Positions 41,988 to 56,979 of a DNA stretch of 64,000 bases are shown here, one piece after another (the first letter of the stretch is position 1; every line of letters starts with the position of its first letter). The position numbers and the translations under genes were made by a program. The DNA is from Candidatus Woesearchaeota archaeon (GTDB lineage: Archaea; Nanobdellota; Nanobdellia; Woesearchaeales; JAZDKJ01). The stretch is taken from contig JAZDKJ010000008.1 of NCBI GenBank assembly GCA_043803105.1, positions 64,001 to 128,000 of the forward strand, read 5' to 3'. The notes under the pieces were generated by a model. That model ran no database searches. It saw only the letters and a program-made list of their open reading frames with translations, and was not told the DNA's origin.

Positions 41988-42204
41988 GCCGCCGTGGCAC
42001 AACCTGGTACTGCGCCAGCCTTGAGAGCTGGTGGCCGAAAGGCTATCCCAGACAGCCTTTTTTGCTTCGCAAAAAAGCCTGGGGAAAGATTCCGGATATT
42101 CCGATGAGCGAGTCTTCCCGACATGCGTAAGAGCGAAATGGCTGGGGAAATTCAAATAGTCCAGAGGGAAAATCCTTCAGGATTTGAGTGTCTGGGCGGC
42201 GGCG
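41988..42204 (+). tRNA. tRNA-Ser(TGA) with introns at 53/54 (42052-42150) and 59/60 (42157-42190)
   Basis: Acceptor GCCGCCG/CGGCGGC+G; anticodon TGA at 42022-42024; long variable arm; removing both BHB introns gives CCCAG-TTCAAAT-CTGGG. Confidence 0.88.
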
Positions 42205-42209
42205 TATTC

Positions 42210-43166
42210 TTATTCTGAACTAACTTTCTCAACCCTTAGCCCATCAAATTTCTTTGATTGAATCCTGTCAAGAAGACTGTCAAGAAAGTCAAGCATTGAC
42301 CTTGCGATGTCGGTCTGCGTCACGATACCTACGGGCTTATCTGCCTCAGAAACAAGAAACCTCCTGAAGTTGCGCTCAAGCATGAAATGATTTGCCTCAA
42401 AAAGCTGCAAGTGAGTGGGAATGGAAACAACAGGAGACTTCATGACATCCTGGACATTAAAGCGAGCAAGCCTGGAAACATCCTTTGCAATCTCGTTAAC
42501 AAAATCACGCTCAGTCAAGATACCGGTTATATGGCCTTCGTTCTTTGCAAGAATGCAGCTAACGTTACGGCTTGCCATCAAAAGCTGTGCTTCTAGAACA
42601 GATTCGGTCTGCTCAATGGTAAGAAGATCTGATGCCATAATCTTCCACATATGGACAGTATTAAGAGAGTCAATTATTGAATGAGTGGCGAACCTGTCCA
42701 ATGCCTTCACTATATCAGTCAGGGTTATTATTCCCACGAGGTTGCCGTCCTCAAGAATCGGAAGCTTCCTGAATTGTTGGTTAACCATGAAGCGGTGGGC
42801 ATCAAAGATTCTTGTTGAAGGCTCAGCGCATTTAGGCGCAGGGCTCATCAGATTGCTTACTTTCTCTTGAAGGGCCTGGTCAACTAATTGAAGCTTCTGC
42901 ACAAAATCCCTCTCAGTGAGAATCCCGGCAATACGATTGGCTCTTGTTACCACGACACAAGACAAGGGTTCTCTGCGCATTGTTGCAGCTGCCTGCCATA
43001 ATGAGTCATTGACATCAACAGTGATGACCTTCCTGGTCATGATATTATTAACTGGCTGAAATAGGATCCTGTTGATTTCCTCCTGAAGAAGGCGAAGATT
43101 TCTTTTTTCTGCCAAGTCCTTAAAAAACGACAAGAATCTCTTAAAGAAGCTCAATTGCTCCGCCAT
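42210..43166 (-). CDS. Four-CBS-domain protein
   Basis: Repeated GILTERDF and GIITLTDI/GIVTQTDI. Confidence 0.88.
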   Translation of the reverse strand: MAEQLSFFKRFLSFFKDLAEKRNLRLLQEEINRILFQPVNNIMTRKVITVDVNDSLWQAAATMRREPLSCVVVTRANRIAGILTERDFVQKLQLVDQALQEKVSNLMSPAPKCAEPSTRIFDAHRFMVNQQFRKLPILEDGNLVGIITLTDIVKALDRFATHSIIDSLNTVHMWKIMASDLLTIEQTESVLEAQLLMASRNVSCILAKNEGHITGILTERDFVNEIAKDVSRLARFNVQDVMKSPVVSIPTHLQLFEANHFMLERNFRRFLVSEADKPVGIVTQTDIARSMLDFLDSLLDRIQSKKFDGLRVEKVSSE

Positions 43167-43257
43167 TCATGACTCTTTATGTGAGCAAATATTTAAACCT
43201 GCCTCAAAGAATGTTAGTGTAATCCTTTGGTACCACAATAGAATGTCAAATTAGAAT

Positions 43258-43659
43258 TCAGGCAAATTTCTTTACGGCAGTGCTACAGTAAGGGCAGTTG
43301 CTGGGCATGTTCTTCTCAACATTGATCTTGAACTGGTAAGCGCACTTCTGGCAGATGTATTTTACAGTGTTCTTGTCAATCCATTGCACTCTAACCAGGT
43401 CATCCATCTTCTGCTTGTGGATGCGCTGAAGATACTCGTCCTCGCGGTCCCAGCCAGCAGGGGAATCTTTCTTTGTATCCTTAGCAGCCTGGCTCTGGGC
43501 CTTGACCTCAGCGTGCACCTGTTCCCGCTGCTTGCGGTCATTGACACAGTTCTGGCAGACCATCTTCCTGTAGACAGGATCGAGAACAAGTTCGTCTGTT
43601 CTAACCTGCTTTCCACAAACCCTGCACTTTACCCTAATACTTTCCATTGACAAGGACAT
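43258..43659 (-). CDS. Zn-ribbon hypothetical protein
   Basis: Four CxxC motifs. Confidence 0.7.
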   Translation of the reverse strand: MSLSMESIRVKCRVCGKQVRTDELVLDPVYRKMVCQNCVNDRKQREQVHAEVKAQSQAAKDTKKDSPAGWDREDEYLQRIHKQKMDDLVRVQWIDKNTVKYICQKCAYQFKINVEKNMPSNCPYCSTAVKKFA

Positions 43660-43728
43660 ATTTTGCCTTCATATTTAAATTTTGTTTTTTTGACAAGACT
43701 TTTAAACATTGAAGGTTACTTAAAGCAA

Positions 43729-45255
43729 ATGGAATATGATATCATATTTGTTGTTGGAGAACGATATTTTGATCATCCCTTATGCGGAACTGCCATCCTG
43801 AAGAGGCTTCTTGAGAAGGAAGGTTTTTCTGTGGGTTTGATCGAAATGCCTCAAAACGACACTGATATAGCAAAACTTGGCAAGCCCAGATTGTTCTTTG
43901 GAGTGAGTTCTGGAAGCATTGACTCAATGGTCAGAAACTATACTCCGCTAAAGAAAAGACGGGATGAAGACAAGAACCTTGATTATAATGAGAAAGTGCC
44001 TGATAGGGCAGTAATAGTGTACTGCAATTGGATCAAAAAGCACTACAAAGATTCTGTCATAGTGATAGGGGGAACCGAGGCAACTTTAAGGCGGTTTACC
44101 CATTATGATTACTGGGACAACAAACTAAGAAGGTCAATCTTGCTTGATTCGAGGGCAAACATCCTGGTTTTTGGCATGGCAGAAAAGCAGACAGTGGAAA
44201 TAGCCAAAAGGCTAAAGCAAGGAAAAGGGCTTGAAGGCATCGAAGGAACTTGTGGGCTGGGAAAACAAATGCCTGCAGGATTTATAGAGCTTGCAAGCCA
44301 TGAAGAGGTATTAAATTCAAAAGAAAAATTCTGTGATATGCAGAACCTTCTAACCAACAGAAAGAGCCTGGCACAAAAAGTAGGGCCTTCTTATGTGCTC
44401 CAATACAAATCTCCAAAATACAGTAGCAAAGACCTTGATGAATACTATGGAATGCAATTCTTACGGACCACTCCAAAGGAGCTCAGAGGCTTCCAGTTCA
44501 GCATAGTAACGCACAGGGGCTGCGTGGGAAACTGCAACTTCTGCTCACTAAAATTAACGCAAGGGGATAGGATAATCTCACGGTCAGAAGAATCAATACT
44601 GAAAGAGATCAAAGGACTTACAAAGCTGGCTTTCTTCAAGGGAAATGTGGATGACTTTACAGGTCCTAGCGCAGATATGTATGGTATGGACTGCAGTGGC
44701 TGCCAAGAAGGGGAATGCCTTAACTGCAACAGACTGGACAAAAGCAATGAAAGGCTGATAAACCTGCTCAGGAAGGCAAGGCAAATCCCTGGAATAAAAA
44801 AAGTGAACCTGAAAAGCGGAATAAGATTTGACTTGGCGAGCGCAGAACTTGTAAAAGAGCTGGCAGAGCACCACATATACGATTTCCTGCGCATAGCTCC
44901 AGAGCATGTAAACAAAGAAGTGCTAAGCTTAATGAACAAAGAAAAAGGCGACCTTGATAAGTTCATTAAAGAATTTAAGAAGGATGCTTCAACAAAAAAA
45001 CTGTCGTTTTATTTCATGACTGCACACCCTGGTTCAACAATCAAGGAAGCAAGGGAATTGGCAGAGAAGATGTGTTTCCTGGAGAACAGCGAGAGCGTGC
45101 AGGTGTTTACACCAACGCCTATGACTGTGTCAACATGCATGTACTATGCAGGAATGGAGCCAAAGACAAAGAAAAAGATCCACGTGCCTTACACTTATTC
45201 TGAGAAAAAAGAGCAGAAACGAGTTCTGATGAAAAATTATTCAAAGACCTTCTGA
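43729..45255 (+). CDS. YgiQ-family radical SAM protein
   Basis: PDRAVIVY, THYDYW, HRGCVGNCNFC, APEH, AHPG, FTPTPMT. Confidence 0.9.
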   Translation: MEYDIIFVVGERYFDHPLCGTAILKRLLEKEGFSVGLIEMPQNDTDIAKLGKPRLFFGVSSGSIDSMVRNYTPLKKRRDEDKNLDYNEKVPDRAVIVYCNWIKKHYKDSVIVIGGTEATLRRFTHYDYWDNKLRRSILLDSRANILVFGMAEKQTVEIAKRLKQGKGLEGIEGTCGLGKQMPAGFIELASHEEVLNSKEKFCDMQNLLTNRKSLAQKVGPSYVLQYKSPKYSSKDLDEYYGMQFLRTTPKELRGFQFSIVTHRGCVGNCNFCSLKLTQGDRIISRSEESILKEIKGLTKLAFFKGNVDDFTGPSADMYGMDCSGCQEGECLNCNRLDKSNERLINLLRKARQIPGIKKVNLKSGIRFDLASAELVKELAEHHIYDFLRIAPEHVNKEVLSLMNKEKGDLDKFIKEFKKDASTKKLSFYFMTAHPGSTIKEARELAEKMCFLENSESVQVFTPTPMTVSTCMYYAGMEPKTKKKIHVPYTYSEKKEQKRVLMKNYSKTF

Positions 45256-45728
45256 ATTGCGAGTTCTGCAGGGACAGTCTCGTTAGTGCAGCCTGAGGCA
45301 CTCACAAAGACAGAGCAACCTTGAGTATTGTAAGTGGGTTCTCTCAAGGTGCAACCTGCAGCAATAGGGGTATCTTTTATCGCTTTCTCACATGCGTCGA
45401 AAGTCTGCCGTGCGTTATTGTAATCAATCAAGCTCCATCGCTTGGAGAACGCTAGGGCGACAGAGGGATTAATAGTCTCGTTAAAGGGCTGCAATCCATG
45501 ATATTTCCTCACCACGTTGTACATAGTGCAATTTCGCTCAGAACTTAGACGATATTGCGCTATGAATGTGGGTGGGGCAGCAGAGGTCTCAAAGGACCAT
45601 CCGTTAGGCAGGAGTTGTCTTATTTGCCCGACTTTTTCCTCCACTTCGCTTTGGCAGCCAATCGAGAGCTTCTGGTCTGTACAGCCAACCAATAAGATAC
45701 AAACAAACACAGCAAAGGCAGGTCTCAT
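45237..45728 (-). CDS. Cys-rich putative lipoprotein
   Basis: LLVGC lipobox. Confidence 0.55.
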   Translation of the reverse strand: MRPAFAVFVCILLVGCTDQKLSIGCQSEVEEKVGQIRQLLPNGWSFETSAAPPTFIAQYRLSSERNCTMYNVVRKYHGLQPFNETINPSVALAFSKRWSLIDYNNARQTFDACEKAIKDTPIAAGCTLREPTYNTQGCSVFVSASGCTNETVPAELAIQKVFE

Positions 45729-45943
45729 AGAGCAAGCTTTGTTGAAGATGTTTATAAATTTGTCGAAGCATTGAATATTTTATGTGGCATGGAAATGCGC
45801 CCTCGCCGCCTGATGTTTTCCAGGTTCGCAAAACTTGCTTCGGACGAGCTATTTTGCTTGAAATGAACCCTTGAAAACTGCGCAGTAGTAACATTCACGA
45901 AATGTTTATAAATACACAAGGCACAACATTTCTCGGTCACTAA

Positions 45944-48850
45944 ATGCAAGAGCTAATAATAAAGGTTGGAGGGAGTTCTGTAAGCACAGCCAAAAACATC
46001 TGGAATGTTGCAGGCCTGATTGCAAATGAATACCTAAGGAATCCCAACACTGGACTGACGGTTGTGGGCTCTGCCATAGGCACACCGCCTGGAAAAAAAC
46101 AACCCAAAGTAACTGACGTGTTGCTTAGGATTGCGAAAAACATCATTTCTGGCAGACAAAAAGAAGCAGTCGAGGATACAGAATACGTAACCAAACTACA
46201 TCTTAATGTAATAGACACATTGGATTTTGATACAGTCCTTGTGGAAGATAATCTGTCAAGCCTTGAATCGATAGTACATACTGCAATCGGCGAAGTCGAA
46301 AGTGGAAAACAAGTTGATGAATACATGCTGATGGATGCAACTGCAACCTTTGGAGAATTGACACTGAACCCTATTTTGGCTGCGGCTGTTCAAAGAAGGT
46401 TGGCAAACGACCTCAGTTCGATAGAAAAGCTCCTAGATCGAGGAACAAATCTCACTTCACAACAACAAAGACTGTACGAAAAGCTGAAATCCTGCGACGG
46501 CAGATATGTTCATGTTGTTGATCCAGCAAATTATGGGTTTGTGACTGACTCCAACTTCACTAAAGCAAAACTTTTGCCTCAGAGCCTTAATACAGAAATC
46601 GCAAAGCACCATATGAAATTGAGGCAAGGGCATCCTTACAAGGTGCTTTTTTATCCTGGTTTCATAGGTGGAGATGAAAAAGGCCACAGGACAACACTGG
46701 GAAGAGACGGTTCAAATGTGACAGCAGTAGCACTTGCAACTTCAATCAAAGCAAGCGAGATTATCATATACACTGACACAGACGGGGTTCTGGCAATACC
46801 TCCAACAGTCCTACCAAACGCACAAACAGTGAGGTTCCTTTCCTACAAAGAGGTTGTGAGCATGGCAGACTGGGGCGGAATGAAGGTAATGCAAGAGCCA
46901 GCACTTGAAATCCTGAACAGGAAGGGAGTAAACATTCCGATATATGTCAAAAACTCATTCAATCCAAAGGAGCCAGGCACATTAATCACGACAGCCTCAA
47001 CCGCGAGCCATACCCTGATGAAGGGAATCGGGGTGTTGAGGGACTTGAGCTACAGAGAATTTCCGGTTCAGACAGCGAGCGATCATGAGGCAATCGCCAG
47101 CATAATCAAGGGATACAAGGGAGCCAAAATAATCTGGGAAGAATTCTCTTCCAAAGGGAATCCAACGAGGGCAAAGTTCTTGGTTCAAAGAGATGCAAAG
47201 ATGGAAATGGACAAAGGACCAGAGTACTTTAGGGAAGCATTATACTGGCTAATAAAAAATCAGGTTTACAAAGGTAAATCAGTAAAGGGAGGATTCCATT
47301 ACCATGATGCATCACTTGTCACTGTGTTTGGCAAGGGAATTGGGAACTCTCACATTGAGATAGGAAAAATCCATGAAATATTGAGCAAGATTGAGCTTTC
47401 AGATAAACTTGAAGGCAAGGAATACATGTTCCCTGTCGAGGTCAAGGAGGATATGCTCCACCTTGTTGTGCGGGAGAAAGACACAAGCCCGGTTGCCAAT
47501 GGCATTTACAATGAGCTGAAAAAGATAAACATTGTGCTTTACGGTCTTGGCAAAGTAGGGCAAAGGTTTCTCGAACAAGCCATGTCAAGGTATCAACAGC
47601 TTGGAATCAACATTGTTGGGGTGGCTGACAGCCTTGGCGTGATCACCAAGCCTGATGGTCTGAGCATAAAAGAATTATCCATGATTAAGGGCATGAAGGC
47701 AGATGGCATAAAGCTTAAAGACATTTCAGTCGGTGAATACCTGCATAGACAAGAGGCTTTGGACCTTAGCAAGATTTTCAGATATGCCAAAGGCGACATG
47801 GTATTGATAGATGCGACTCCTGAGCCGCAAATGCTCTCAACGATTTCCCAGGCATTGAAATTGGGTGCTAGTGTCATATCAGTAAACAAGACTCCTTACG
47901 CAACAAAACCCCAGGCATGTAATGACAGGTCCACCAAACGCAAGATAAGAAAATTGTTCGAAGGTGTGCTGTCAGAAAGAGTTCTCAACCGCGGTACGGT
48001 AGGTGCAGACCTGGGCATACCTGGCACATTGTTAGGGGTTCTGGCCACAAACCCAGAATATGTGACTGTAAGAGGATGCATGAGTGCTACGTGCGGATAC
48101 ACAGCAGCTTCACTTAGTACAATGCGTTTTTCAGAAGCCATACAAAGTTCCATATCCAAGGGATATACAGAACCTACTCCTTTTGATGACTACTCAGGAA
48201 ATGATATACTTCGCAAGACCATAATACTGTGGAGAATGATTGCCAGCAAATATGGCCTTGACATGTTCAACATAGACATCAAGCATGAAAGCTTCATCGA
48301 GCCGATGATAAGGCTCTTTGAGAAGAAGGGAGGCAACCGAGCAGAATTTGCAGACATTAGCCAACTTGACGCAGTTCAATTTGTAGAAAAAATGAAGGTT
48401 TTAGATCGTTATTTTATAGAGCTCCAATCAGAGCTTGGAAAAGATTATGTGTTCAGATACGTTGCAGAAATAAGGTATAACCCTATGGCCTTGAACACTA
48501 TCGCCAACAAATATGAAATCTCAGTTGGATTAAAAAAATTACATAAGGACAGCATTCTTGGCGGGCTCGATGGACCTGAAAATCTGGTTGTATTTGGCGC
48601 AGGCGAAGAGCCGAAGAAGACTTATGGTCTTCAGCCAGGGCCTGGTGGAGGGCACGAGGTCACTGCAAGCGCGATAATGCACGACCTGGAAAAGATCATT
48701 GAAAGAGCCCGGGGAAGAAGAAAGGGGCAGGTTATCGAGGTATTCAAACAGAACGAAACAACAAAAACTCCTAAATACACTACTTTCTTTTTTAGCCATA
48801 CACAACAACGATTGAGGGATTATGTCTCGAAAGGGACACTGCATCCTTAA
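45944..48850 (+). CDS. thrA: Bifunctional aspartokinase/homoserine dehydrogenase (divergent)
   Basis: IIKVGGSSV, TTLGRDGSNVTA, YTDTDGV, VKNSFNP; YGLGKVG, SVNK, GYTEP.P.DDYSG.DI.RK, GPGGG.EVTASA. Confidence 0.85.
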   Translation: MQELIIKVGGSSVSTAKNIWNVAGLIANEYLRNPNTGLTVVGSAIGTPPGKKQPKVTDVLLRIAKNIISGRQKEAVEDTEYVTKLHLNVIDTLDFDTVLVEDNLSSLESIVHTAIGEVESGKQVDEYMLMDATATFGELTLNPILAAAVQRRLANDLSSIEKLLDRGTNLTSQQQRLYEKLKSCDGRYVHVVDPANYGFVTDSNFTKAKLLPQSLNTEIAKHHMKLRQGHPYKVLFYPGFIGGDEKGHRTTLGRDGSNVTAVALATSIKASEIIIYTDTDGVLAIPPTVLPNAQTVRFLSYKEVVSMADWGGMKVMQEPALEILNRKGVNIPIYVKNSFNPKEPGTLITTASTASHTLMKGIGVLRDLSYREFPVQTASDHEAIASIIKGYKGAKIIWEEFSSKGNPTRAKFLVQRDAKMEMDKGPEYFREALYWLIKNQVYKGKSVKGGFHYHDASLVTVFGKGIGNSHIEIGKIHEILSKIELSDKLEGKEYMFPVEVKEDMLHLVVREKDTSPVANGIYNELKKINIVLYGLGKVGQRFLEQAMSRYQQLGINIVGVADSLGVITKPDGLSIKELSMIKGMKADGIKLKDISVGEYLHRQEALDLSKIFRYAKGDMVLIDATPEPQMLSTISQALKLGASVISVNKTPYATKPQACNDRSTKRKIRKLFEGVLSERVLNRGTVGADLGIPGTLLGVLATNPEYVTVRGCMSATCGYTAASLSTMRFSEAIQSSISKGYTEPTPFDDYSGNDILRKTIILWRMIASKYGLDMFNIDIKHESFIEPMIRLFEKKGGNRAEFADISQLDAVQFVEKMKVLDRYFIELQSELGKDYVFRYVAEIRYNPMALNTIANKYEISVGLKKLHKDSILGGLDGPENLVVFGAGEEPKKTYGLQPGPGGGHEVTASAIMHDLEKIIERARGRRKGQVIEVFKQNETTKTPKYTTFFFSHTQQRLRDYVSKGTLHP

Positions 48851-48852
48851 TC

Positions 48853-49473
48853 TTGGCAAAGCTTCGAAAAGGATGTGCATACTTGAGAAAAAGTAGACTT
48901 GCAAGAAAATACAATGCAAGGCCCGCAATAGCTTTTGAACACCCTTACTGGGTTTTCTCTGTTGCGAAGCGTGTTGATATTCATGATAGTAACGAAAAAA
49001 CTCTTGTTAAGGATTTGAGCGACCTTATGACTGAAGCCAGGGATCTATATGGGTGGGTAGGGATAAGTTCTAACAACTTGATGTGGAATGCCACAAAGAT
49101 GCCAATCAGAGTAATCCAGGTGCTTGCTCCAGAAGGGGGAGACTACTTAACTCTTACGAATCCTGAGCTAAAGGAGATTTGTGGAGAGAAATTCGAATCG
49201 CATGAAGGTTGCGGTTCATTTCCCGGAAGAATGTATTGGGTACAAAGGTATCCCTATGTGCGCCTGGTTGGAATCCAACTTTATCATGCCAAATTCGAGC
49301 AAATAGAACTAATATACGGAGCAAAAGACGTGAAATTAGAGTGGCCAGAATGTTGTGTTAATGAAAAGCTCCAGCCAGTTCGTGTAGTGCAGCACGAATG
49401 CGATCATTTAGAAGCCATAGTCATACCTAAACTTGCTTATTCAATGAACAGGAACCAAAACAAATATAAATGA
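48853..49473 (+). CDS. Peptide deformylase-like protein with uL16-like N-terminus
   Basis: VGISSN (motif 1 variant), EGCGS, VQHECDHLE. Confidence 0.8.
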   Translation: MAKLRKGCAYLRKSRLARKYNARPAIAFEHPYWVFSVAKRVDIHDSNEKTLVKDLSDLMTEARDLYGWVGISSNNLMWNATKMPIRVIQVLAPEGGDYLTLTNPELKEICGEKFESHEGCGSFPGRMYWVQRYPYVRLVGIQLYHAKFEQIELIYGAKDVKLEWPECCVNEKLQPVRVVQHECDHLEAIVIPKLAYSMNRNQNKYK

Positions 49474-49495
49474 ATTTGGAACCATCAAGACAGAT

Positions 49496-49701
49496 GCCCC
49501 GTTGGTGTAGCCCGGCGCAATGGAACTTCAGTTAGAGGTTCCATGCGGGAACAATCATTCGGCCCTCTCGAGGCCGAGACTCGGGTTCAAACAGCCTTTT
49601 TCCATAGGAAAAAGCCTGGGGAAAGGCTTTTTTGCCTTCGGCAAAAAAGTGTGTTTCAAAGGTTTCAAATGTGGGAGGGTTAGAAAATCCCGAACGGGGC
49701 A
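49496..49701 (+). tRNA. tRNA-Glu(CTC) with D-loop intron (49517-49551) and 59/60 intron (49592-49687)
   Basis: Acceptor GCCCCGT/ACGGGGC+A; CGGCC-CT-CTC-GA-GGCCG; BHB helices CCCG/CGGG and TTCA/AGAA. Confidence 0.88.
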
Positions 49702-49873
49702 TTAATTTCTTAACACCATATAACAGAATTCAACGAGTTCGCAACATATTTAAGGGGAAACTAGTTTTTATGTCAGCAAGCCGCGGTCGCATACTCACAG
49801 AACAAGTTCTGTGGTCGCGACCTTGTGTGGCAATCTTCAAGCTAAATAGCTTGATGGCAATAAGATCAATTTT

Positions 49874-50015
49874 GCCGCGGTCGCATAATCCGGTACGCGC
49901 TGGATTCCTCCGGAATCCGCTGGTGTCCCGTGCGCGGAACATTGCGGCAGTCTCGAACCAATGCAAGAGAACTGCTGTCCGTAAGGGCATCTCGGTTCAA
50001 ATCCGAGCCGCGGCG
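49874..50015 (+). tRNA. tRNA-Ser(CGA) with D-loop intron (49895-49940) and canonical 37/38 intron (49958-49969)
   Basis: Acceptor GCCGCGG/CCGCGGC+G; GCAGT-CT-CGA-AA-ACTGC after splicing; long variable arm; BHB helix TCCG/CGGA. Confidence 0.87.
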
Positions 50016-50023
50016 TTTACACA

Positions 50024-50332
50024 ATGTATATCCCAAAGCGTTACGGCCAGAGCAAGATTGACAAGTGCCCTTTCTGCGGAAAACAGGCCATCGCACTTAA
50101 CAAGCAGAAGGTTCCAGTCTGTGAAGCGCACAAATGGAACAATCTGGATGAGATGAAATGCAGCTGCGGAAGCTACCTGGAGATGAAACATGGGAAATTT
50201 GGGGTATTCTTCGTTTGCTTCAAGTGTGGAAACAAGAACCTAAAGCAGGTGCTTGAGATAAATGAGCCCAAAGATAAGAGCAGCAGTCAGAATGAAATAA
50301 CTGTAAGGTCTGATGACCCAAGGTACTTCTAA
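50024..50332 (+). CDS. Zn-ribbon hypothetical protein
   Basis: CPFCG, CEAH, CSCG, GKFGVFFVCFKC. Confidence 0.75.
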   Translation: MYIPKRYGQSKIDKCPFCGKQAIALNKQKVPVCEAHKWNNLDEMKCSCGSYLEMKHGKFGVFFVCFKCGNKNLKQVLEINEPKDKSSSQNEITVRSDDPRYF

Positions 50333-50391
50333 AATAAAAAGATTTAAAAAGAGGGGTTTCCTCATATTAACAAAATTGATATTTTTGGGAG

Positions 50392-50766
50392 GTGAATAAA
50401 TTGGCAAAAGAGGTAAAAACAGCGAGTAGTAGCATGACACAGACAATAGGAGGCTGGGCATTCATCATCGGTGTCATCATTGCAGTAATTTCTGGATTTT
50501 TTATGCTCAGCGCAACGCTTGTCTCAGTACTTGTATTGCTGGGATTAATAGTCGGCTTCTTGAACATAACAGGCAAAGAGACAATGGGGTTTTTGATGGC
50601 AACCGTGTCTTTGGTAATTGTTAGCTATTTCGGAGGCCAAGCCTTAAGCGAAATCGCTTTTGTTGGCACGGTGCTTGCAGGCATCATGAATGCAATAATG
50701 ATATTTGTGGTACCAGCAACAATTGTCGTGGCCCTGAAGTCAATATTTGCAATGGCACACGATTAG
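50392..50766 (+). CDS. Four-TM membrane protein
   Basis: Hydrophobic helices; GWAFIIG, GFLNIT; start uncertain. Confidence 0.75.
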   Translation: MNKLAKEVKTASSSMTQTIGGWAFIIGVIIAVISGFFMLSATLVSVLVLLGLIVGFLNITGKETMGFLMATVSLVIVSYFGGQALSEIAFVGTVLAGIMNAIMIFVVPATIVVALKSIFAMAHD

Positions 50767-50808
50767 GTTTTTTATTTTTTTTTATTTTAGAATTCTTTGA
50801 AGGCAAAT

Positions 50809-51465
50809 TTAGAATAGTCTGTTGGCAAAAGCACTGAATCTTGTATCCATCTGTATTTCGGTTGTTTTAGGTGCACCTTGCCTGTATCCAGATGCGAATA
50901 GGTCAACAACCAAATCAATAAATGGTTTTGGTTTTGCAGCCCATTTAGCGCTTTGCACATCTGCCTTTACCTGTATTATATAATCGAGACCTTTGTCTCC
51001 GAAAATGGCTCCGCTTAGCATTGCCTCGATGATATCAGCCTTCGTAACATTATAGTTCGCAGGGACACATCTCCTCCGTGTCATAACATCTGCAATACCT
51101 TGAACAATTCCTTCCTGCACTCCCTTAACAAAAGCCAGACTCACCGGATGATTATGGAAAGCGAAAGCTGCAATCGGCACCTGGGAGGCATACAAATTTG
51201 CCTTATCCCGGTTTAGATCCATCAACATCCAGACTGGATCCTTGGAGTTGCTAATGGTCCTCTTGAGGTACTCAAACTCCCTGTAACCAATATGAGAAGG
51301 AGGAGCACTGACATAGTGGCCTCCAAGAATTGGAAATCGAAATTCTGTGGTATCATAAGTACTTTCATAGTTGAATGAAGCATTCCTAAGTATTGTAACA
51401 AGAAGTTTAACATCTTTCCGTGAACAACGCATTTTCTTGGAAGTTGGAATTCGTTCGCCTATCAT
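50809..51465 (-). CDS. Hypothetical protein (HNHP motif)
   Basis: 218-aa ORF; FHNHP is JAB-like but the remaining motif was not confirmed. Confidence 0.55.
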   Translation of the reverse strand: MIGERIPTSKKMRCSRKDVKLLVTILRNASFNYESTYDTTEFRFPILGGHYVSAPPSHIGYREFEYLKRTISNSKDPVWMLMDLNRDKANLYASQVPIAAFAFHNHPVSLAFVKGVQEGIVQGIADVMTRRRCVPANYNVTKADIIEAMLSGAIFGDKGLDYIIQVKADVQSAKWAAKPKPFIDLVVDLFASGYRQGAPKTTEIQMDTRFSAFANRLF

Positions 51466-51634
51466 AACAGAACCTATTGTTCTCTGAGGATTTATAAAGA
51501 TTTGCCCACCAAAGCGCAGCTTGTGATGATGGTTGCTTTACCGAGACCTCGATTCTGACTTGGTCCTTTCATGTCTCAAGGCGCATCCCAAAAAAACGTC
51601 AGCTTTAAAAGAGGACAAGGCATTCTCCTTGTTA

Positions 51635-52288
51635 ATGATAAGCAAGGCTTTTTTGGATTGGAATGGGGTACTGCTAGCGGATGGTTCGGCTTGCTTTGAT
51701 ACTGACAACCATATGCTGAAAACATTTGGTGGTAACCTAGTCGATTTCAAGACCTTCAGAGACACTATAGTTATCCCTTCAATAGACTTCTACGTAATGC
51801 ATGGTTGCAATCGGGAACAATTGGAGAGAGATTCAAAAGAAGTTTCAAAGGTTTTTCATGCTTATTTTGAGAAAAGAGAATCGAAGTGCAGGACAAGGAA
51901 GGGGGCAAGGGAGGTTTTGTACTGGCTAAGGGAGAATTCAATCGAGACCATAATCGTGACGAATCACACTGTCGCAGGGCTTGAACTTCAACTATCAAGA
52001 CTTAAACTCAAAGAATACTTCTCCGCAGTTGAAGCCAATCCAGACGGAAATACGTCGATGCACACAACGAGCAAGCTGGAAAAGGTTTGCCGGCACTACA
52101 GCAGGAATGAGGGGGCATTGATCCTTGGAGATTCGCCCGAAGAAGTCAAAATTGGAAAAGAGCTAGGCATTCCAACTGTTGCAATAACCGGCGGATATTA
52201 TTCCACAAAGAGGCTTAGACAAAGCCAGCCTGATTACCTGATTAACAATTGGAAAGAACTGATTGGAGTAATAAAGGAAATCAGATAA
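51635..52288 (+). CDS. HAD-superfamily hydrolase
   Basis: FLDWNGVL, VTN, ILGDS motifs. Confidence 0.85.
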   Translation: MISKAFLDWNGVLLADGSACFDTDNHMLKTFGGNLVDFKTFRDTIVIPSIDFYVMHGCNREQLERDSKEVSKVFHAYFEKRESKCRTRKGAREVLYWLRENSIETIIVTNHTVAGLELQLSRLKLKEYFSAVEANPDGNTSMHTTSKLEKVCRHYSRNEGALILGDSPEEVKIGKELGIPTVAITGGYYSTKRLRQSQPDYLINNWKELIGVIKEIR

Positions 52289-52352
52289 GAACCAGAGATA
52301 ATTTTTTTGATCTATTGCAGCTTTAGCACATAATCCTTTAAGGTTGAAGTTC

Positions 52353-53567
52353 TTAAGACAGAGCAATTCCTTCAAGATATTTTTCGCTTTTCAGGTCTAA
52401 TGAATAGAATGTCTTGTCATAGTTTGCGAAGTATGCCACATCTCCTTTCTGGAGTAGAAAGGCAGGATAGGATATCTTGCCAGTGTTGCTGATGGCCAAT
52501 TTGCCACTCTCCACATCATACAAAGTATCTCCATCCTCCAAAGAAAACAACCTGCCGCCAAGAGTAAGTAATGCGGCCGGAATGAACGGCACCAGTCCTT
52601 TCTCGAAATTTTCCAGAGGATATTCTATTTTTGAGAATGGCTTTCCTGGGTGGCGTAGGTCATAGCAGGTATGGTGGTCTCTTCCAAGCACCAATAATGG
52701 CAAATCTGTTCGATGGGTTTGGTGACTCCAAAATCTACAGCTGCTTATGCAGTCTGCTTGGGAGGAGAACCAGGATATGGTCATCAATTCATTGTTTATG
52801 TCTTTTTTTGGTACATACTTAGCGATGTATGGGGCAACTTGTTGCTCAAGTTCGACTGTTTCTTTAAATGGTCGGACTATCTTTTTTCCATCCCTGGAAA
52901 GATAGCTTACCTGTCCATCTATCTCAAAGTGCCCAGGTATTATTTTACAAGGCAGTTTTACTTCTCCGATTTCTTTGGAAAAACTTAGCAAAGTGTTACG
53001 GTCAGCCGATAGTGCGATTAGCTGGCCTTTGATTTCTTCAACACTGACTATTTCATTGTTGCTTACTAATTCTTTGCCTGACATCAGATCGACTGTCTTA
53101 TACTCTCTGCTAGATAAATGGAGGCTTTCTGCAAGAATTAGATGCTCTTCGGTGGCCAACCTGGCATTGCAGTCAGCCAAAGGACAGACCATAGTTTTGA
53201 TTGTCCCGTTAGGGTTGATTTTTATATACTCTTGCCTCTTTTTGACTCTGAAATAGTGTCCTGAGTCTGAATCCACTGTCCAGACAGTGTCTGGCAACCT
53301 GTAAGTTCCCTGCGATAAGTTGAACAGATTCCTGCTGTCATTTTTTGATTGGAAATATGGCATTCCTTTGATTATTATCGGTTTTGTTCTTACAGGTTCA
53401 CTAAATTTCGTGACTAGTCTTCCTTTTTCAAAAAGACTATAAACACTTTGGCGATCGACTCCTAGAAGATACGCAAAATCAGCGTCGTTCCAGAGCAGGA
53501 ATGCCTCTTGCGGTAATTGGAATAACTCTTTGACACCTTTTCCGATAAGGTTCTCAAGGTTTAGCAT
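52353..53567 (-). CDS. Hypothetical beta-rich protein
   Basis: 404-aa ORF with no recognised motif. Confidence 0.6.
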   Translation of the reverse strand: MLNLENLIGKGVKELFQLPQEAFLLWNDADFAYLLGVDRQSVYSLFEKGRLVTKFSEPVRTKPIIIKGMPYFQSKNDSRNLFNLSQGTYRLPDTVWTVDSDSGHYFRVKKRQEYIKINPNGTIKTMVCPLADCNARLATEEHLILAESLHLSSREYKTVDLMSGKELVSNNEIVSVEEIKGQLIALSADRNTLLSFSKEIGEVKLPCKIIPGHFEIDGQVSYLSRDGKKIVRPFKETVELEQQVAPYIAKYVPKKDINNELMTISWFSSQADCISSCRFWSHQTHRTDLPLLVLGRDHHTCYDLRHPGKPFSKIEYPLENFEKGLVPFIPAALLTLGGRLFSLEDGDTLYDVESGKLAISNTGKISYPAFLLQKGDVAYFANYDKTFYSLDLKSEKYLEGIALS

Positions 53568-53675
53568 AGTCGAGAAGAGTGACCCTTTGTTTATATTGAT
53601 TATTGTGCTTTATTGCAGCTAACCGCAAGGTATCATGGCCAATGTGCTTGAGGCTGTCAGCTGATGAACAACCTG

Positions 53676-55526
53676 TAAAGAAAGAGTGGCGGTGCGGAGT
53701 TCTATAACAAGTGCGATTTCAGGCCTAGCAATTCATCGTCCTCTGAGCAAATTTTTCAAAATGCAGACCATATATCGCTAATTCTATTGCGACAGGAACT
53801 GCCTTTATCTTTGTGAAGAAGGTCCTTGTCAACAGCCTCCAGTATAAGAACCTGGAATTGGAAAGAATGCCAATCTTCCAAAAGCTCTTGAAAAGCGCAT
53901 GAAGATCTCTTTTGGTGAATCTTGAACGCACAGTTGGTTTGTAATGCTTAATAAAAGTATTGATTCTTTGATAATAATTCTTGGGCGTGTAAATTGTGGA
54001 AATGATTTCCTTGTAACCCTGGATAAGTTTTGCTTCTTTCATTTTGGGCACAAAGTTAATGGTACCATCTGTGTTTTCTCCTGTTGCTGCATGCAGCAAT
54101 CTTCCCTCAGCCTTGAGCCTGTGCCAAAGCCTTGTCTGTGGAAGCACATTCAAAAGCCCGACCATGGCTGTCACTACACCAATCTCTTGAATGAACTTTA
54201 TCTGGGTTTTGAAAATATTTGAAGGATCGTTATCAAATCCGACAATAAAACCTGCTGCCACCTGCAAGCCATTCTGGTGTATTATCTTCACGGATTCAGA
54301 CAGATTTCTCAAGTTGTTCAGTTTGCCGCACTCCCTCAAGCTTTTTGCGCTTGGAGTCTCAATGCCAAGAAACACTGTACCAAAATTTGCCCTTGACATG
54401 AGCTGCATAAGCTCGAGGTCATCTGCAAGGTTAATACTGGCCTCAGCGGAAAGGGTAAAAGGATATTTACGGCTCTTCTGCCAGTCTATCAATAGGGGAA
54501 GCAATCTCTTCACCTTCTCCTTGTTACCAATGAAATTGTCATCAACAATGAAAACACGACCTCTCCAGCCATAATCAAAAATCTGCTGGAACTCCCTTAT
54601 GACCTGGTCTGGGTCTTTTGTCCGGGGGCTTCTGCCATTCATCACGACAATGTCACAGAATTCGCAATCAAAAGGGCAGCCCCTAGAATATTGTATCGGC
54701 ATGCTTGCATAGTCTTTCAGGCTTATCAAAGACCACATAGGCACAGGAGTTTTTCTTATATCAGGCCGTACCTTTGAGGAGTATACCTTTTTTGGAGTTC
54801 CTTTTTCAAGGTCATTCAAGAATCTTGGCAGGGTGACTTCTGCCTCGTTCAAAACAAAATGGTCCACATCCTTAAACCGCATATAGGTTGTTGTAAAGCA
54901 TGGGCCGCCAGCAACGATAGTCTTTCCAAGGGCTTTGCATCTCTTGATTATTTCCTTGACACTTTCAGTCTGAACAATCATTGCGCTAATCAATACCATG
55001 TCTGGCCAACTAAGCTGTTGGTCTGTCAGTTCGGATACATTCATATCCAGAAGCTTTTTCTCCCATCTTTTAGGAAGCATAGACGCCACTGTCAATAAAC
55101 CTAGTGGCGGAGAGGAAGCCTTTTTCTTGATAAAACCCAGAGCATGACCAAAACTCCAAAAGGTGTCAGGACACTTTGGATAGACCAGAAGAACTTTCAC
55201 CGCTTTTTTCATCTATTGCAACTTTTGTTGGGGTTATATAAAGGTATTCTTTGACGAATGTTGGGCTCGTGATGTTATGTTCTTTTCCTGCGCAGGTTCC
55301 AAGCCCCTATCAATCCTGCGGCAATTGCAGCAAATCCTCCCAGTGCAAGAGTTACGGTCAGAAGAAGAAATTGTGATAGAACGTCCACCTTCAGCGTGGC
55401 AAAAGTTTCCTAAACACGTTGACAGGATTTCTTAAAGCAACACGTAGGTTATGGCATGTTCTCTTGTGCATTCGGAGGGGGTGTTTACCTGAGGTAAATA
55501 TATAAAGAAAATGTGGCGGTGCCGAG
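53676..55526. mobile_element. Putative integrated islet at the tRNA(CAT) 3' end
   Basis: Direct repeat TAAAGAAAGAGTGGCGGTGCGGAG (53676-53699) vs TAAAGAAAATGTGGCGGTGCCGAG (55503-55526), 21/24 identical, includes the tRNA 3' end. Confidence 0.55.
53725..55212 (-). CDS. B12-binding radical SAM protein (DUF4070 type)
   Basis: PPLGLLTVA, SRGCPFDCEFC, VDDNF, GFIVGFD. Confidence 0.92.
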   Translation of the reverse strand: MKKAVKVLLVYPKCPDTFWSFGHALGFIKKKASSPPLGLLTVASMLPKRWEKKLLDMNVSELTDQQLSWPDMVLISAMIVQTESVKEIIKRCKALGKTIVAGGPCFTTTYMRFKDVDHFVLNEAEVTLPRFLNDLEKGTPKKVYSSKVRPDIRKTPVPMWSLISLKDYASMPIQYSRGCPFDCEFCDIVVMNGRSPRTKDPDQVIREFQQIFDYGWRGRVFIVDDNFIGNKEKVKRLLPLLIDWQKSRKYPFTLSAEASINLADDLELMQLMSRANFGTVFLGIETPSAKSLRECGKLNNLRNLSESVKIIHQNGLQVAAGFIVGFDNDPSNIFKTQIKFIQEIGVVTAMVGLLNVLPQTRLWHRLKAEGRLLHAATGENTDGTINFVPKMKEAKLIQGYKEIISTIYTPKNYYQRINTFIKHYKPTVRSRFTKRDLHALFKSFWKIGILSNSRFLYWRLLTRTFFTKIKAVPVAIELAIYGLHFEKFAQRTMNC

Positions 55527-55662
55527 ACTTCCGCATCCTTTTGGGATATTCGGACTCGGGACCTTTACGTCACCCATGGTTTAGCTTGAGTATATCATCG
55601 GCATCTGCCTCATCGCTCAAGAATATGAGCGTAACGCTATAACCAGGCTAAGCTACACCGCC
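55514..55662 (-). tRNA. tRNA-CAT (Ile2 favoured over elongator Met) with 37/38 intron (55571-55623) and 59/60 intron (55528-55548)
   Basis: Acceptor GGCGGTG/CACCGCC+A; TTACG-CT-CAT-AA-CGTAA after splicing; BHB helices CTCA/TGGG and TCCG/CGGA; G1-C72 and G2-C71 favour Ile2. Confidence 0.85.
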
Positions 55663-55800
55663 AGCTTTTTTTGTCCCAAAAAAACCTGGGAAAAGGGTTT
55701 TTGGCTGGTGCCAAAAACGCAGCCTCTACGGCTGCAAAAGTTGCCAGCTGACTTTTCAGCTGAGCAGCACCGCCAGCTTTTTTGCTGATGCAAAACTTAG
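55662..55800 (+). repeat. tRNA-associated hairpin repeat element (also at 42052-42088 and 49591-49650)
   Basis: CAGC(C)-T5-7-loop-A5-7-(G)CCTGGG(G/A)AAAG consensus followed by further hairpins. Confidence 0.75.
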
Positions 55801-56930: not shown

Positions 56931-56979
56931 GAAAAAAAAGAGAGAAGAAGGGTATATATTTTTTTTGGTATTGGAAAGG

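Follow-up and report, generated by a model that had tools for sequence, protein, structure and literature searches.

A hairpin repeat in and beside tRNA and 16S rRNA genes of a woesearchaeote: a candidate portable mini-intron cassette

The window considered here, a 64,000-nucleotide stretch of contig JAZDKJ010000008.1 from Candidatus Woesearchaeota archaeon, contains three intron-bearing tRNA genes that are each accompanied by a copy of a small hairpin module, hp1. ARAGORN and Rfam found no tRNA in the raw window. The features, in window positions, are:

41988-42204, + strand, tRNA-Ser(TGA) gene; exons 41988-42051, 42151-42156 (TTCAAA) and 42191-42204
42052-42150, + strand, tRNA-Ser intron at 53/54 (99 nt); bulge-helix-bulge (BHB) TCCC-AG^A-CAGCC ... 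GGCTG-GGGA-AA^T, read by hand
42053-42088, + strand, hp1 copy 1 (CAGCC-T6-GCTTCGC-A6-GCCTG-GGGA-AAG); model R1, 48.9 bits
42157-42190, + strand, second T-loop intron of tRNA-Ser, at 59/60 (34 nt, without hp1); the ARAGORN call requires its removal
49496-49701, + strand, tRNA-Glu(CTC) gene, with a D-loop intron (about 49516-49551) and a T-loop intron
49592-49687, + strand, tRNA-Glu T-loop intron at 59/60 (96 nt); hp1, a second hairpin, then the 3' half GGTT-AGAA-AA^T
49592-49625, + strand, hp1 copy 2 (CAGCC-T5-CCATAGG-A5-GCCTG-GGGA-AAG); model R1, 53.9 bits
49626-49649, + strand, hp2, the second T/A hairpin of the tRNA-Glu intron; stem formed in the fold
55514-55662, - strand, tRNA(CAT) gene, with a 53-nt anticodon-loop intron and a 21-nt T-loop intron, both without hp1
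55662-55695, + strand, hp1 copy 3, antisense to tRNA(CAT); model R1, 53 bits
55697-55762, + strand, composite leader hairpins hp2 (55697-55718), hp3 (55719-55735) and hp4 (55745-55762); fold, z = -4.06
55768-55795, + strand, duplicate of tRNA nucleotides 1-7 (CACCGCC, 55768-55774) plus partial hp1 (55774-55795)

The repeats listed in the original prediction, three copies of what is here called hp1 (now placed at 42053-42088, 49592-49625 and 55662-55695) and a partial copy (55774-55795), are all present as described, while its account of the host genes needs some amendment. The 53/54 intron of tRNA-Ser stands, but the description was incomplete: a second T-arm intron lies at 59/60, with a central helix TTCA/TGAG read by hand. 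ARAGORN calls an 84-nt tRNA-Ser(tga) once both introns are removed in silico, and makes no call on the unspliced gene. In the RNAfold minimum-energy structure of the 53/54 intron, UCCC pairs with GGGA and CAGCC with a distal GGCUG, with AGA forming a bulge of 3 nt (precursor fold, z = -2.3). The element had also been credited with supplying its own BHB half. Its tail does have the geometry of a 3' half, but in tRNA-Ser the element's own CCTGGGGAAAG is a pseudo-site, and the true 3' splice half is supplied further on by a second copy that fits better (GGCTG-GGGA-AA, 42140-42150). Likewise, tRNA-Glu carries the predicted 59/60 intron with hp1 and a second hairpin, but has a D-loop intron besides, and ARAGORN calls tRNA-Glu(ctc) only after both introns are removed; the D-loop boundaries are approximate, because 66 of 80 boundary combinations yield a tRNA call (Glu-ctc in the listed examples). 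In the minimum-energy fold of this gene the T stem is retained, and AGCCU is matched by a distal GGGUU (z = -3.07).

At tRNA(CAT), hp1 copy 3 lies antisense at the 5' end as proposed, but overlaps the gene by one base instead of merely abutting it, because its first C complements tRNA nucleotide 1. A direct-repeat search recovered the duplicate at 55768-55795 (GCTAAGCTACACCGCCAGC versus GCTGAGCAGCACCGCCAGC). Once the introns are taken out, ARAGORN also calls a tRNA here, as Thr-cgt, through a 3-nt shift of the 53-nt intron; the BHB register and the orthologue in the same-genus genome G001, where the T loop TTCAAAT is uninterrupted, both favor CAT.

The consensus of hp1 is CAGC(C)-T4-7-variable palindrome-A4-7-(G)CCTG-GGRA-AA. 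This discrete, non-coding repeat runs from CAGC to CCTG-GGRA-AA and spans about 34 nt, or about 93 nt where a second module, which enters at one fixed point, is nested inside. In the window, CCTGGGRAAAG occurs three times where 0.07 occurrences are expected (none of 100 shuffles had as many), and a covariance model of 11 copies, run with filters off, gave exactly three strong matches (48.9-53.9 bits; next best 18 bits). The genome-wide scan suggested by the original prediction yielded 15 matches to model R1 at E<1e-5, to which 9 split or degenerate copies were added by regular expression or by eye, for a tally of 24 in the 1.56 Mb genome. A discrete repeat tied to tRNA or 16S rRNA genes is borne out, with 22 of the 24 in or beside such genes, and not the random spread of a generic terminator-like hairpin that had been named as the contrary outcome. 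Eleven copies lie sense in tRNA T-arm introns, one in a 16S intron, four antisense at a tRNA 5' end, three sense behind a 5' tRNA fragment and three antisense ahead of 3' tRNA fragments. The remaining two have no recognisable RNA gene and, together with the copy inside 16S rRNA, qualify for the genome as a whole the impression, gained in the window, that none exist away from tRNAs. Introns, leaders, trailers and sites without a recognisable RNA gene are thus occupied, in both orientations, and about half of the recognised tRNA loci (18 of at least 35) bear hp1. Four composite copies—from a T-loop intron, an antisense leader, a tRNA-Ala trailer and an intergenic site—align from CAGC to CCTGGGAAAA with 89-92% identity across 48-53 nt; outside these limits the flanks are unrelated, so the ends are sharp, and no short target duplication is seen there.

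That loops differ while pairing is kept, as first noted in the window, is confirmed by 89 distinct copies, in which pairing extends to 99.6% of cells and both partners have changed in 7 of 11 pairs. Covariation scores 0.37, compared with 0.106 for shuffled alignments (0 of 500 equally high), and even the closing pair varies among copies in this genome, being C-G, G-C or A-U. The alignment was model-fitted and most of its rows were picked by a pattern fixing T4/A4 and the flanks, so the flank conservation in rows from genome_contigs is partly imposed. The hairpin is maintained via compensatory change.

The introns that carry hp1 look designed for excision by the tRNA-splicing enzyme. The GGRA-AA tail mimics the 3' splice half, the partner of the T loop, and T-loop introns close with four bases complementary to T-loop positions 54-57, after which comes A(A/G)T. 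At C12:115068 and in G036 (L019), hp1 alone is the whole intron; in short T-loop introns at C6:25666 and in G028 (L031), the hp1 5' arm opens the intron and its own 3' half ends it. RNAfold on full precursors favors long-range pairing of the 5' arm over the local hairpin, and in-silico intron removal brings back tRNA calls. The T-loop central helix has 3 of 4 pairs only, and the motif is relaxed. Among the matches listed, the upstream flank pairs with GGRA in BHB register (at least 3 of 4 pairs) at 42 of 81 copies, against 23% for random tetramers, and still does so at 30 of 69 copies outside T loops; tail type (GGGA or GGAA) shows no covariation with flank base -6 (p = 0.79). The genome encodes an EndA of 203 aa with both domains, as well as RNase P RNA. 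The 16S rRNA provides a further example. Of 21 genomes of the order, 7 carry an intron of 93-152 nt without a homing-endonuclease ORF between GGATTAGATA and CCCGAGTAGTCC, and 14 have an empty site, so its presence is patchy. The BHB is strict (TTAG-AT^A-CAGCTTTTT...AAAAAGCTG-CTAA-TG^A), and in the genome under study hp1 sits at the 5' end; the hp1 tail of the G000 intron is of the T-loop type (GGAA), not the 16S type (CTAA).

Beyond this genome, genome_contigs has at least 108 stretches with the exact hp1 pattern, nearly all of them belonging to DPANN archaeal MAGs. Among the matches listed, 77 of 80 loci are archaeal and 3 bacterial; the archaeal ones are mostly labelled as DPANN (Woesearchaeota, Iainarchaeum, Micrarchaeota, Aenigmatarchaeota, Undinarchaeales and Nanoarchaeota), some just as "archaeon" or Methanosarcinales. 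An ARAGORN tRNA lies within 200 nt of 34 of 81 copies elsewhere in DPANN, among the matches listed, against 5.8% of random positions. The elements are more conserved than their host genes. For example, 86 of 93 positions agree between the introns at C12:181546 and C7:13127, versus 22 of 38 and 9 of 14 in their flanking exons; the 3' parts of the introns at C6:403763 and C6:521476 match at 46 of 53 positions versus 21 of 37 for the hosts; and the hp1-to-hp4 composite of the tRNA(CAT) leader recurs at C6:371781, abutting tRNA-Tyr, with 81 of 101 positions identical versus 24 of 38 for the tRNAs themselves. Presence and absence, which the original prediction had proposed to compare, do differ: model R1 has no match in G001, and hp1 is missing at both orthologous sites readable there, the tRNA(CAT) leader and tRNA-Ser(GGA), which lacks the 53/54 intron. 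A filled/empty pair among close strains was not found, the nearest genome (84% complete, 240 contigs) being 66-69% identical in coding DNA, and absence there may reflect loss or assembly failure. Conversely, the tRNA-Ser 53/54 intron with hp1 occurs at the same site in the distant Woesearchaeota MAG L113; part of the pattern looks vertical, because some hp1 introns share site and tRNA in distant MAGs.

A co-occurring mobiliser, one of the expectations of the original prediction, did not emerge. In this genome, which is 96% complete, RVT_1 reverse transcriptase was not found and group II-like signals were all below threshold; the hairpins bordering the one Y1/HUH transposase are unrelated and recur nowhere else. 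No fixed target-site duplication accompanies hp1. Duplications of tRNA ends flank many copies; they are 14-65 nt long and sometimes absent, and so fit no single known transposition chemistry. The proposed non-autonomous, tRNA-targeting element holds in part: the repeat is discrete, sharp-ended, patchy and present in both orientations, but no mobiliser or fixed duplication was found, and it looks in part vertically inherited.

We give about an even chance to hp1 being a discrete, copied, portable mini-intron cassette of DPANN archaea. In the RNA, the CAG...CUG-closed U/A hairpin would form the inner helix of a BHB or bulge-helix-loop motif, with GGRA pairing either to T-loop UUCR or to T-stem UCCC; the final two A's would be the first two bulge nucleotides, so that the unit ends at the expected endonuclease cut. 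A sense copy in a T arm, anticodon loop or 16S rRNA could then serve as a whole intron, or as the 5' module of a longer one that finishes with a second, better 3' half, and would be tolerated because it can be spliced out. Copying among unrelated sites presumably proceeds as DNA, or via a DNA copy, and unspliceable copies would persist only outside mature RNA, often beside a duplicated tRNA gene end. The antisense copies, the two copies at no recognisable RNA gene and the module nested at a fixed point argue for DNA-level events, and we infer gain rather than loss as their direction. Against this reading count the missing mobiliser and strain pair, the partly vertical pattern, the relaxed T-loop motif, the long-range pairing of the 5' arm in full precursors, a tail type that does not follow flank base -6, the variable duplications and the T6-T7 runs, since oligo-T tracts terminate archaeal transcription. 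As such a cassette, hp1 may show how archaeal tRNA introns arise.

Other readings deserve weighing. The hp1 repeat has T and A runs on both strands, stands immediately 3' of a tRNA in several cases (L070, L088, L108, L117, L122) and forms tandem arrays in some MAGs (L063, L064, L116, G034); there is also a weak co-occurrence with Y1 transposases (5 of 8 hp1-positive versus 5 of 33 hp1-negative genomes). Yet it is most improbable that hp1 is a generic intergenic hairpin, terminator-like or REP-like, without a special intron link, given that 22 of the 24 copies are at tRNA or rRNA genes, which by rough estimate account for about 1% of the genome, that 12 lie within RNA genes, where a terminator would be harmful, and that the Y1 gene is bordered by different, non-repeated hairpins. 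Mobility at the RNA level, with an excised intron ligated or reverse-spliced into other RNAs and then copied to DNA, would account for an hp1 3' end at the predicted endonuclease cut, for hits in highly transcribed RNA genes and for duplicated segments that stop near tRNA gene 5' and 3' ends. BHB-compatible flanks above chance, among the matches listed, also favor it, but simple reverse splicing cannot yield antisense or intergenic copies, which need an extra step. Together with the missing RVT_1 reverse transcriptase, the below-threshold group II-like signals and a nested module that in our reading lacks BHB logic, this makes the RNA route very unlikely.

We think it improbable that hp1 marks an old, vertically inherited, immobile intron family in which it is retained as a folding or splicing aid, with likeness among tRNAs arising through gene duplication, anticodon switching and gene conversion, and non-intron copies being recombination debris. 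Both tRNA-Ser genes, and both tRNA-Glu genes, do share homologous introns at the same positions, the tRNA-Ser 53/54 and 59/60 layout recurs in L113, the motif is conserved across phyla among the matches listed, and T-arm introns at 53/54 and 59/60 are already described for ARMAN-2 (PMC3239211). Against this stand the unit's unrelated flanks and two orientations, its T-loop-type tail in 16S rRNA, the two copies at no recognisable RNA gene, elements far more alike than host exons with different acceptor stems, and the lack of hp1 in the same-genus genome. It is unlikely that the repeats are leftovers or miniatures of integrase-driven elements, hp1 and its spacer lying beside an attachment site and the duplicated tRNA ends being attL and attR; introns would then originate when an intron-bearing attP copy recombines with an intron-less tRNA, as modelled by Sugahara et al. 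2012 (PMC3293823). Of the four tyrosine recombinase genes (418-431 aa), three share the strand of an hp1-bearing tRNA and are located 55-330 nt downstream of it, att-like tRNA 3'-end repeats occur 2-36 kb downstream (C10:64631 and 65627, C6:509998, C7:15345, C8:134078/136956/137479), and hp1-flanking repeats span a tRNA loop to just beyond the nearer gene end, as in archaeal integrations according to PMC3293823. But three of three adjacent loci are weak evidence (chance about 0.1), because about half of tRNA loci carry hp1, and integrase homologues occur within 8-kb loci of just 2 of 80 copies elsewhere in DPANN, among the matches listed. Moreover, hp1 is absent from the ends of three larger elements checked in this genome and from 2.9 million viral contigs (0 matches), the DNA between repeats is 36-200 bp without an ORF, repeats also flank hp1 at non-tRNA sites (C5:47110, L090, L120), and the sharp CAGC...GGRA-AA unit is left unexplained.

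For a portable cassette, the nearest relatives in kind are several. Published work already contains the idea that tRNA introns of archaea move or are brought in by mobile DNA. Fujishima and colleagues in 2010 reportedly found Thermoproteales non-canonical tRNA introns alike across genes and positions, and interpreted them as intron transposition. Both sets comprise BHB introns at non-canonical positions that are alike across tRNA genes, but the cassette hp1 measures 34 nt, has defined ends and a tail complementary to the T loop, is spread over several DPANN phyla and 16S rRNA, and also occurs outside introns, in both orientations and with duplicated tRNA ends. BHB introns are known from the 16S rRNA of Thermoproteales as well; a conserved 16S site, a strict BHB and patchiness among relatives are common to those and the present intron, which differs in its 93-152 nt length, its lack of a homing-endonuclease ORF and the tRNA-type hp1 at its 5' end. 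REP/BIME elements with RAYT, and PATE/MITE derivatives of IS200/IS605, are short, imperfect, non-coding palindromes with a conserved head and mosaic nested hairpins. These features, and the absence of target duplication at unit ends, are shared with hp1, which, unlike REP/BIME, flanks no cognate Y1 gene, concentrates in RNA genes instead of operon 3' ends and has a tail tuned to a splicing motif.

For DPANN archaea, EndA of broad specificity is described and relaxed hBH motifs are cut in vitro (Fujishima et al. 2011, PMC3239211; Kaneta et al. 2018, PMC5829648), and alpha4-type EndAs have been linked to heavily disrupted tRNA genes (PMC3239211; PMC5829648). Introns at 53/54 and 59/60 are common to ARMAN-2 and this genome; the EndA here is a single 203-aa alpha-type protein, and those accounts, as far as covered here, mention no shared hairpin family such as hp1. 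Comparable in layout is a single Caldiarchaeum locus where a 1.8 kb recombinase-encoding insert was proposed to have brought about intron gain (Sugahara et al. 2012, PMC3293823). There, as at hp1 sites, a 5' tRNA fragment is followed by inserted DNA and then an intact tRNA, recombinase genes lie beside tRNAs, and the intron is proposed to arrive with mobile DNA. Unlike that insert, those at hp1 sites are 36-200 bp long, non-coding and built on one conserved hairpin module, and they number in the dozens.

The repeat family that the original prediction placed at tRNA genes, here called hp1, is a hairpin module of about 34 nt (CAGC(C), four to seven T, a variable palindrome, four to seven A, then (G)CCTG-GGRA-AA), and we put at about even the chance that it is a portable mini-intron cassette. 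In this role hp1 would be copied as DNA between sites, tolerated where the splicing endonuclease can excise it, and would act as the seed or 5' module from which longer introns form. The three copies and one partial copy in the window have just the sequences that had been described, and the 11-mer CCTGGGRAAAG occurs there three times against 0.07 expected by chance. A covariance model of hp1, built from an alignment of 11 copies in the own genome (1.56 Mb in 13 contigs, 96.5% complete, the window being C8:64001-128000), gives three matches of 48.9-53.9 bits in the window with filters off, the rest scoring 18 bits or less. The tRNA genes concerned are as follows.

41988-42204: tRNA-Ser(TGA), with introns at 53/54 (42052-42150) and 59/60 (42157-42190); called by ARAGORN after intron removal
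49496-49701: tRNA-Glu(CTC), with a D-loop intron (about 49516-49551) and a T-loop intron (49592-49687); called by ARAGORN after intron removal
55662-55514, minus strand: tRNA(CAT), with a 53-nt anticodon-loop intron and a 21-nt T-loop intron

The raw window yields no tRNA by ARAGORN, with or without its intron option, or by Rfam at the gathering threshold; the serine and glutamate genes are called only once their introns are removed in silico. ARAGORN labels the third gene Thr-cgt through a 3-nt shift of the intron, and we favor CAT on the register of the bulge-helix-bulge (BHB) splice motif (CTCA/TGGG) and the orthologue in G001, the genome of the same genus. With its 21-nt intron removed, the T loop of tRNA(CAT) (window 55514-55662, minus strand) reads TCCGAAT, with C at position 55; in G001 the orthologous T loop is TTCAAAT and carries no intron. 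GATGA-like strings are present in the 53-nt anticodon-loop intron. For the whole own genome ARAGORN reports nine tRNAs and RF00005 six matches over cut-off, so its tRNA genes are heavily interrupted, and interruption of the hp1 type would explain why standard finders miss most tRNAs in such genomes. Elsewhere in the window, 55820-57390 on the minus strand holds three consecutive ORFs of 135, 196, and 136 aa and matches G001 DNA in two overlapping pieces at 66-69% identity; a frameshift or break in one gene could account for it, as could a fault in the assembly.

Genome-wide, hp1 is present in 24 copies, 15 of them strong by the covariance model and nine split or degenerate copies found by regular expression or by eye. 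Eleven lie in sense orientation in tRNA T-arm introns, one forms the 5' end of the 16S rRNA intron (between GGATTAGATA and CCCGAGTAGTCC), and three sense copies sit right behind the 5' fragment of the next tRNA. Antisense copies occupy a tRNA 5' end in four cases (CAT and its partial copy, Tyr, and C8:7981) and precede 3' fragments downstream of tRNA-Ala and tRNA-Thr in three. The last two, C5:47110 and C6:36804, have no recognizable RNA gene, so the original remark that no copies were seen away from tRNAs stands for the three strong matches of the window and does not extend to the genome. About 18 of at least 35 recognized own tRNA loci have hp1 inside or adjoining, the 35 being a hand-compiled lower bound and no census, because the custom structure-based tRNA finder is incomplete (some 16 plausible genes from 73 candidates).

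Four copies contain a nested two-hairpin module between the A run and CCTGG. These composites, one in a T-loop intron, one in an antisense leader, one in a trailer, and one at an intergenic site, can be aligned from CAGC to CCTGGGAAAA at 89-92% identity and not beyond; shared ends in unrelated flanks therefore mark hp1 as a discrete unit. No short target-site duplication was found at the ends of the four. As had been noted from the sequence, loops differ while pairing is kept: in an alignment of 89 distinct copies, 99.6% of cells form pairs, and both sides have changed in 7 of the 11 pairs. The covariation score of 0.37, from an alignment that is model-fitted and in which most rows were selected by pattern, was reached by none of 500 shuffles, and slid controls gave 0.065 or less. 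In the own genome at large, such nested modules, about 57 nt long with two hairpins, occur at one fixed point of hp1 (A run/CCTGG) in at least three sequence variants (C6:521476, C8:7981, C6:36804, C6:303930, C7:13127, C13:502, C6:187486), and a second hairpin family, GAAGGTGC-(G/C)AGCTGACTT(T/C)(T/G)CAGCT(C/G), is present at seven or more own loci, several adjoining tRNA-end fragments (C6:371865, C6:405519, C6:393886, C8:119747, which is window 55745-55762, C10:15733, C12:115188, C12:74596).

The 10-nt tail of hp1 is made up of CCTG, GGRA, and AA, the CCTG closing the hairpin with a C.C mismatch that is constant. Read against the splice motif, CCTG corresponds to the inner helix, GGRA to the 4-bp central-helix strand, and AA to the first two bulge nucleotides of a predicted 3' splice site. 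In T-loop introns the AA is followed by A(A/G)T, and the terminal tetramer of every such intron can pair with T-loop positions 54-57. The entire intron is hp1 at C12:115068 and in another genome (G036, L019), while short T-loop introns at C6:25666 and in G028 (L031) start with the hp1 5' arm and end with a CGAA-AGT of their own.

The own genome has a splicing endonuclease gene, a single 203-aa ORF (C4:37074-37685, minus strand) with the domains tRNA_int_endo_N and tRNA_int_endo. Assessed by hand, BHB geometry is strict (two 3-nt bulges, 4-bp helix) in the Ser 53/54 and 16S introns, and T-loop copies have a relaxed motif, in which three of four central pairs form and the 5' site carries a loop. 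The Ser 53/54 motif, also drawn by hand, reads TCCC-AG^A-CAGCC ... GGCTG-GGGA-AA^TTCAAA; the element's own GCCTG-GGGA-AAG in this intron nearly duplicates the true 3' half, and an RNAfold structure of the Ser precursor shows the AGA bulge of 3 nt together with the helices UCCC/GGGA and CAGCC/GGCUG. Only the 12 intragenic copies lie within an RNA that becomes canonical on their removal; the other 12 do not. The upstream flank can pair with the hp1 tail in BHB register in 42 of 81 copies, a match that 23% of random tetramers would give, and in 30 of 69 outside T loops; no significant covariation of tail type with flank base emerged. A strict outer H2 helix in every long intron was also considered and dropped, since no distal perfect complement of CAGCTTTTT was found in the own T-loop introns; one is present in the 16S intron only and, imperfectly, in the Ser intron.

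At the 16S rRNA site, the flanks rejoin to GGATTAGATACCCGAGTAGTCC once the intron is removed, matching 14 intron-less relatives; across the order (21 genomes) the intron is present in seven and the site empty in the other 14. All seven are built alike, with covarying H2 pairs (CAGC/GCTG, CAAC/GTTG, CACC/GGTG, CGAG/CTCG) and a constant CTAA. In the own genome the hp1 tail of this intron is still the T-loop-type GGAA, and retention of that tail suggests derivation from a tRNA-type copy. Downstream of the 16S rRNA, group II intron RNA domains are matched twice, both times below threshold (L008 2401-2468 and 2880-2928, C8 at about 151900-152430; 27.6 and 22.5 bits), in a genome without a detected reverse transcriptase. 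The RNase P RNA match at C12:69545-69885 spans 341 nt against a 288-position model, and its extra length may be an insertion.

Beyond the own genome, the covariance model finds matches in seven of 40 relatives, all from other families of the same order, and none in G001, the only genome of the same genus (84% complete). At least 108 stretches of contigs from one genome per species, and none of the viral contigs, contain the exact pattern CAGCYTTTTN{3,18}AAAARCCTGGGRAAA; of the 80 loci listed, 77 are archaeal, most labeled as DPANN groups, and the three bacterial matches are due to chance. Contexts elsewhere resemble those of the own genome, with T-loop introns, anticodon-loop introns of tRNA-Thr, trailers right after the tRNA 3' end, and brackets of duplicated tRNA ends. 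The anticipated enrichment at tRNA genes is evident: 34 of 81 archaeal copies are within 200 nt of an ARAGORN-detectable tRNA, against 5.8% for positions drawn at random from those loci. Some DPANN MAGs (L063, L064, L116, and L018 of G034) carry hp1 in tandem arrays whose period ranges from about 41 to 106 nt, each unit of L116 including a 5' tRNA-Glu fragment. A search of metagenome contigs with the protein adjoining tRNA(CAT) gave no closer relative (best match 65% identical), and none of the 80 metagenome loci listed has a syntenic tRNA(CAT) 5' end or an hp1-like hairpin.

Elements that resemble each other more than their hosts do are taken as evidence for copying, and three pairs are of this kind. 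The introns at C12:181546 and C7:13127 are identical at 86 of 93 positions, their flanking exons at 22/38 and 9/14; the leader composites of CAT and Tyr, from hp1 through the further hairpins to hp4, agree at 81/101 and the tRNAs at 24/38; and the 3' parts of the C6:403763 and C6:521476 introns agree at 46/53, their hosts at 21/37. Copies outside genes are likewise what would be expected of something copied. Also on the side of copying, G001 has no hp1 in its tRNA(CAT) leader and an intact TTCAAAT at the site where tRNA-Ser(GGA) of the own genome has its 53/54 intron; another intron of that tRNA, 59/60-60/61, is common to both genomes. The tRNA-Glu match in G001 lies only about 130 nt from a contig end and so is uninformative. 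Vertical inheritance of hp1 as a functional intron module is, in our estimation, rather unlikely. Mobility at the RNA level seems highly improbable, and the suggested reverse transcriptase did not materialize (zero PF00078 matches in the own genome, 96.5% complete). Scarcely credible is a generic terminator or REP-like hairpin. T6-T7 runs within putative introns do raise the question of premature termination. No TATA-like box was seen inside hp1-bearing introns; an Aeropyrum "intron" proved to be two halves transcribed separately (PMC3218864).

A less likely account takes hp1 copies for scars, or for miniature forms, of elements driven by an integrase. In the own genome 8 of 24 copies sit between direct repeats of 14-65 nt, as do at least 20 of 84 elsewhere, each repeat spanning from a break in the D loop, T arm, or anticodon arm to 0-17 nt past the nearer tRNA gene end, so that one repeat copy is a tRNA fragment and the other an intact gene. 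Such tRNA-end repeats have the classical look of integrase attachment sites; three tyrosine recombinase genes (418-431 aa) lie just downstream of hp1-bearing own tRNAs, with att-like repeats a further 2-36 kb on. However, the DNA between hp1-associated repeats is only 36-200 bp and ORF-less, the ends of the larger own elements lack hp1, and the proposed integrase association, adjacent at three own loci yet at only 2 of 80 loci elsewhere, is not general. A target duplication of fixed length was rejected, the repeats varying from 14 to 65 nt. A tRNA fragment that always adjoins CAGC was rejected too, since the leaders of CAT and Tyr have the opposite polarity. At L045 1396-1510 (G001:C195) an intact tRNA-Ser gene is preceded, at a distance of about 70 nt, by a 5' fragment of tRNA-Ser, and the spacer between them is not hp1; duplication of tRNA ends thus also occurs apart from hp1. 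Outside the window, at C10:28583-64647, a tRNA-Ser(GCT)-like gene precedes one for a 428-aa tyrosine recombinase, and exact 17-nt and 15-nt repeats of the tRNA 3' end recur 36 and 37 kb downstream; the stretch is a candidate integrated element of about 36 kb. More att-like repeats of tRNA 3' ends stand downstream of hp1-bearing tRNAs, also outside the window (C6:509998-521343, C7:13278-15345, C8:132901-137479, C6:542449), including an 11.3-kb stretch that opens with an integrase gene; an array of three follows a second tRNA-Glu outside the window.

Other mobilizers fare no better in the own genome, where neither a TnpB-type domain (PF07282) nor, among its hp1 copies, an ORF enclosed by an inverted hp1 pair was found. 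As to the suggested TnpA/HUH mobilizer, there is a single gene for a Y1/HUH (Y1) transposase, flanked by unrelated hairpins, not hp1; these (CGCACTTTAGTGCG) occur at the gene's own two ends and in three looser matches (within two mismatches) elsewhere. Y1 genes are present in 5 of 8 hp1-positive versus 5 of 33 hp1-negative genomes, a co-occurrence that is only suggestive, and kin are not independent.

The origin of non-canonical archaeal tRNA introns is an unsettled question, and the cassette reading makes it experimentally approachable, given a small, sequence-defined unit that can be traced from genome to genome and is seen as a complete intron, as the head of longer introns, and outside genes. 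A bolder version, which we hold tentatively and at somewhat less than an even chance, is that hp1 is a 34-nt mobile parasite of archaeal tRNA splicing across DPANN phyla: its ends would be the cut sites, its tail would pair with the universal T loop, copies landing in sense in the loop of an RNA gene would be removed without a scar, and longer non-canonical introns of tRNA and rRNA would grow by added modules. If true, this would supply a concrete, testable route by which archaeal tRNA introns arrive.

Set beside known systems, hp1 copies have defined ends in unrelated flanks, as MITEs do, and are not the repeat that flanks a Y1 gene, as in a REPtron. Intron transposition in Thermoproteales is reportedly an idea already published, cited in PMC3239211. 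In the main texts searched on archaeal and DPANN tRNA introns, we found no description of the hp1 hairpin family or of a sequence-defined, phylum-spanning cassette with splice-site ends. Related ideas are in print: intron gain through an integrating element (PMC3293823), and T-arm introns of DPANN archaea together with an EndA (tRNA-splicing endonuclease) of broad specificity (PMC3239211, PMC5829648).
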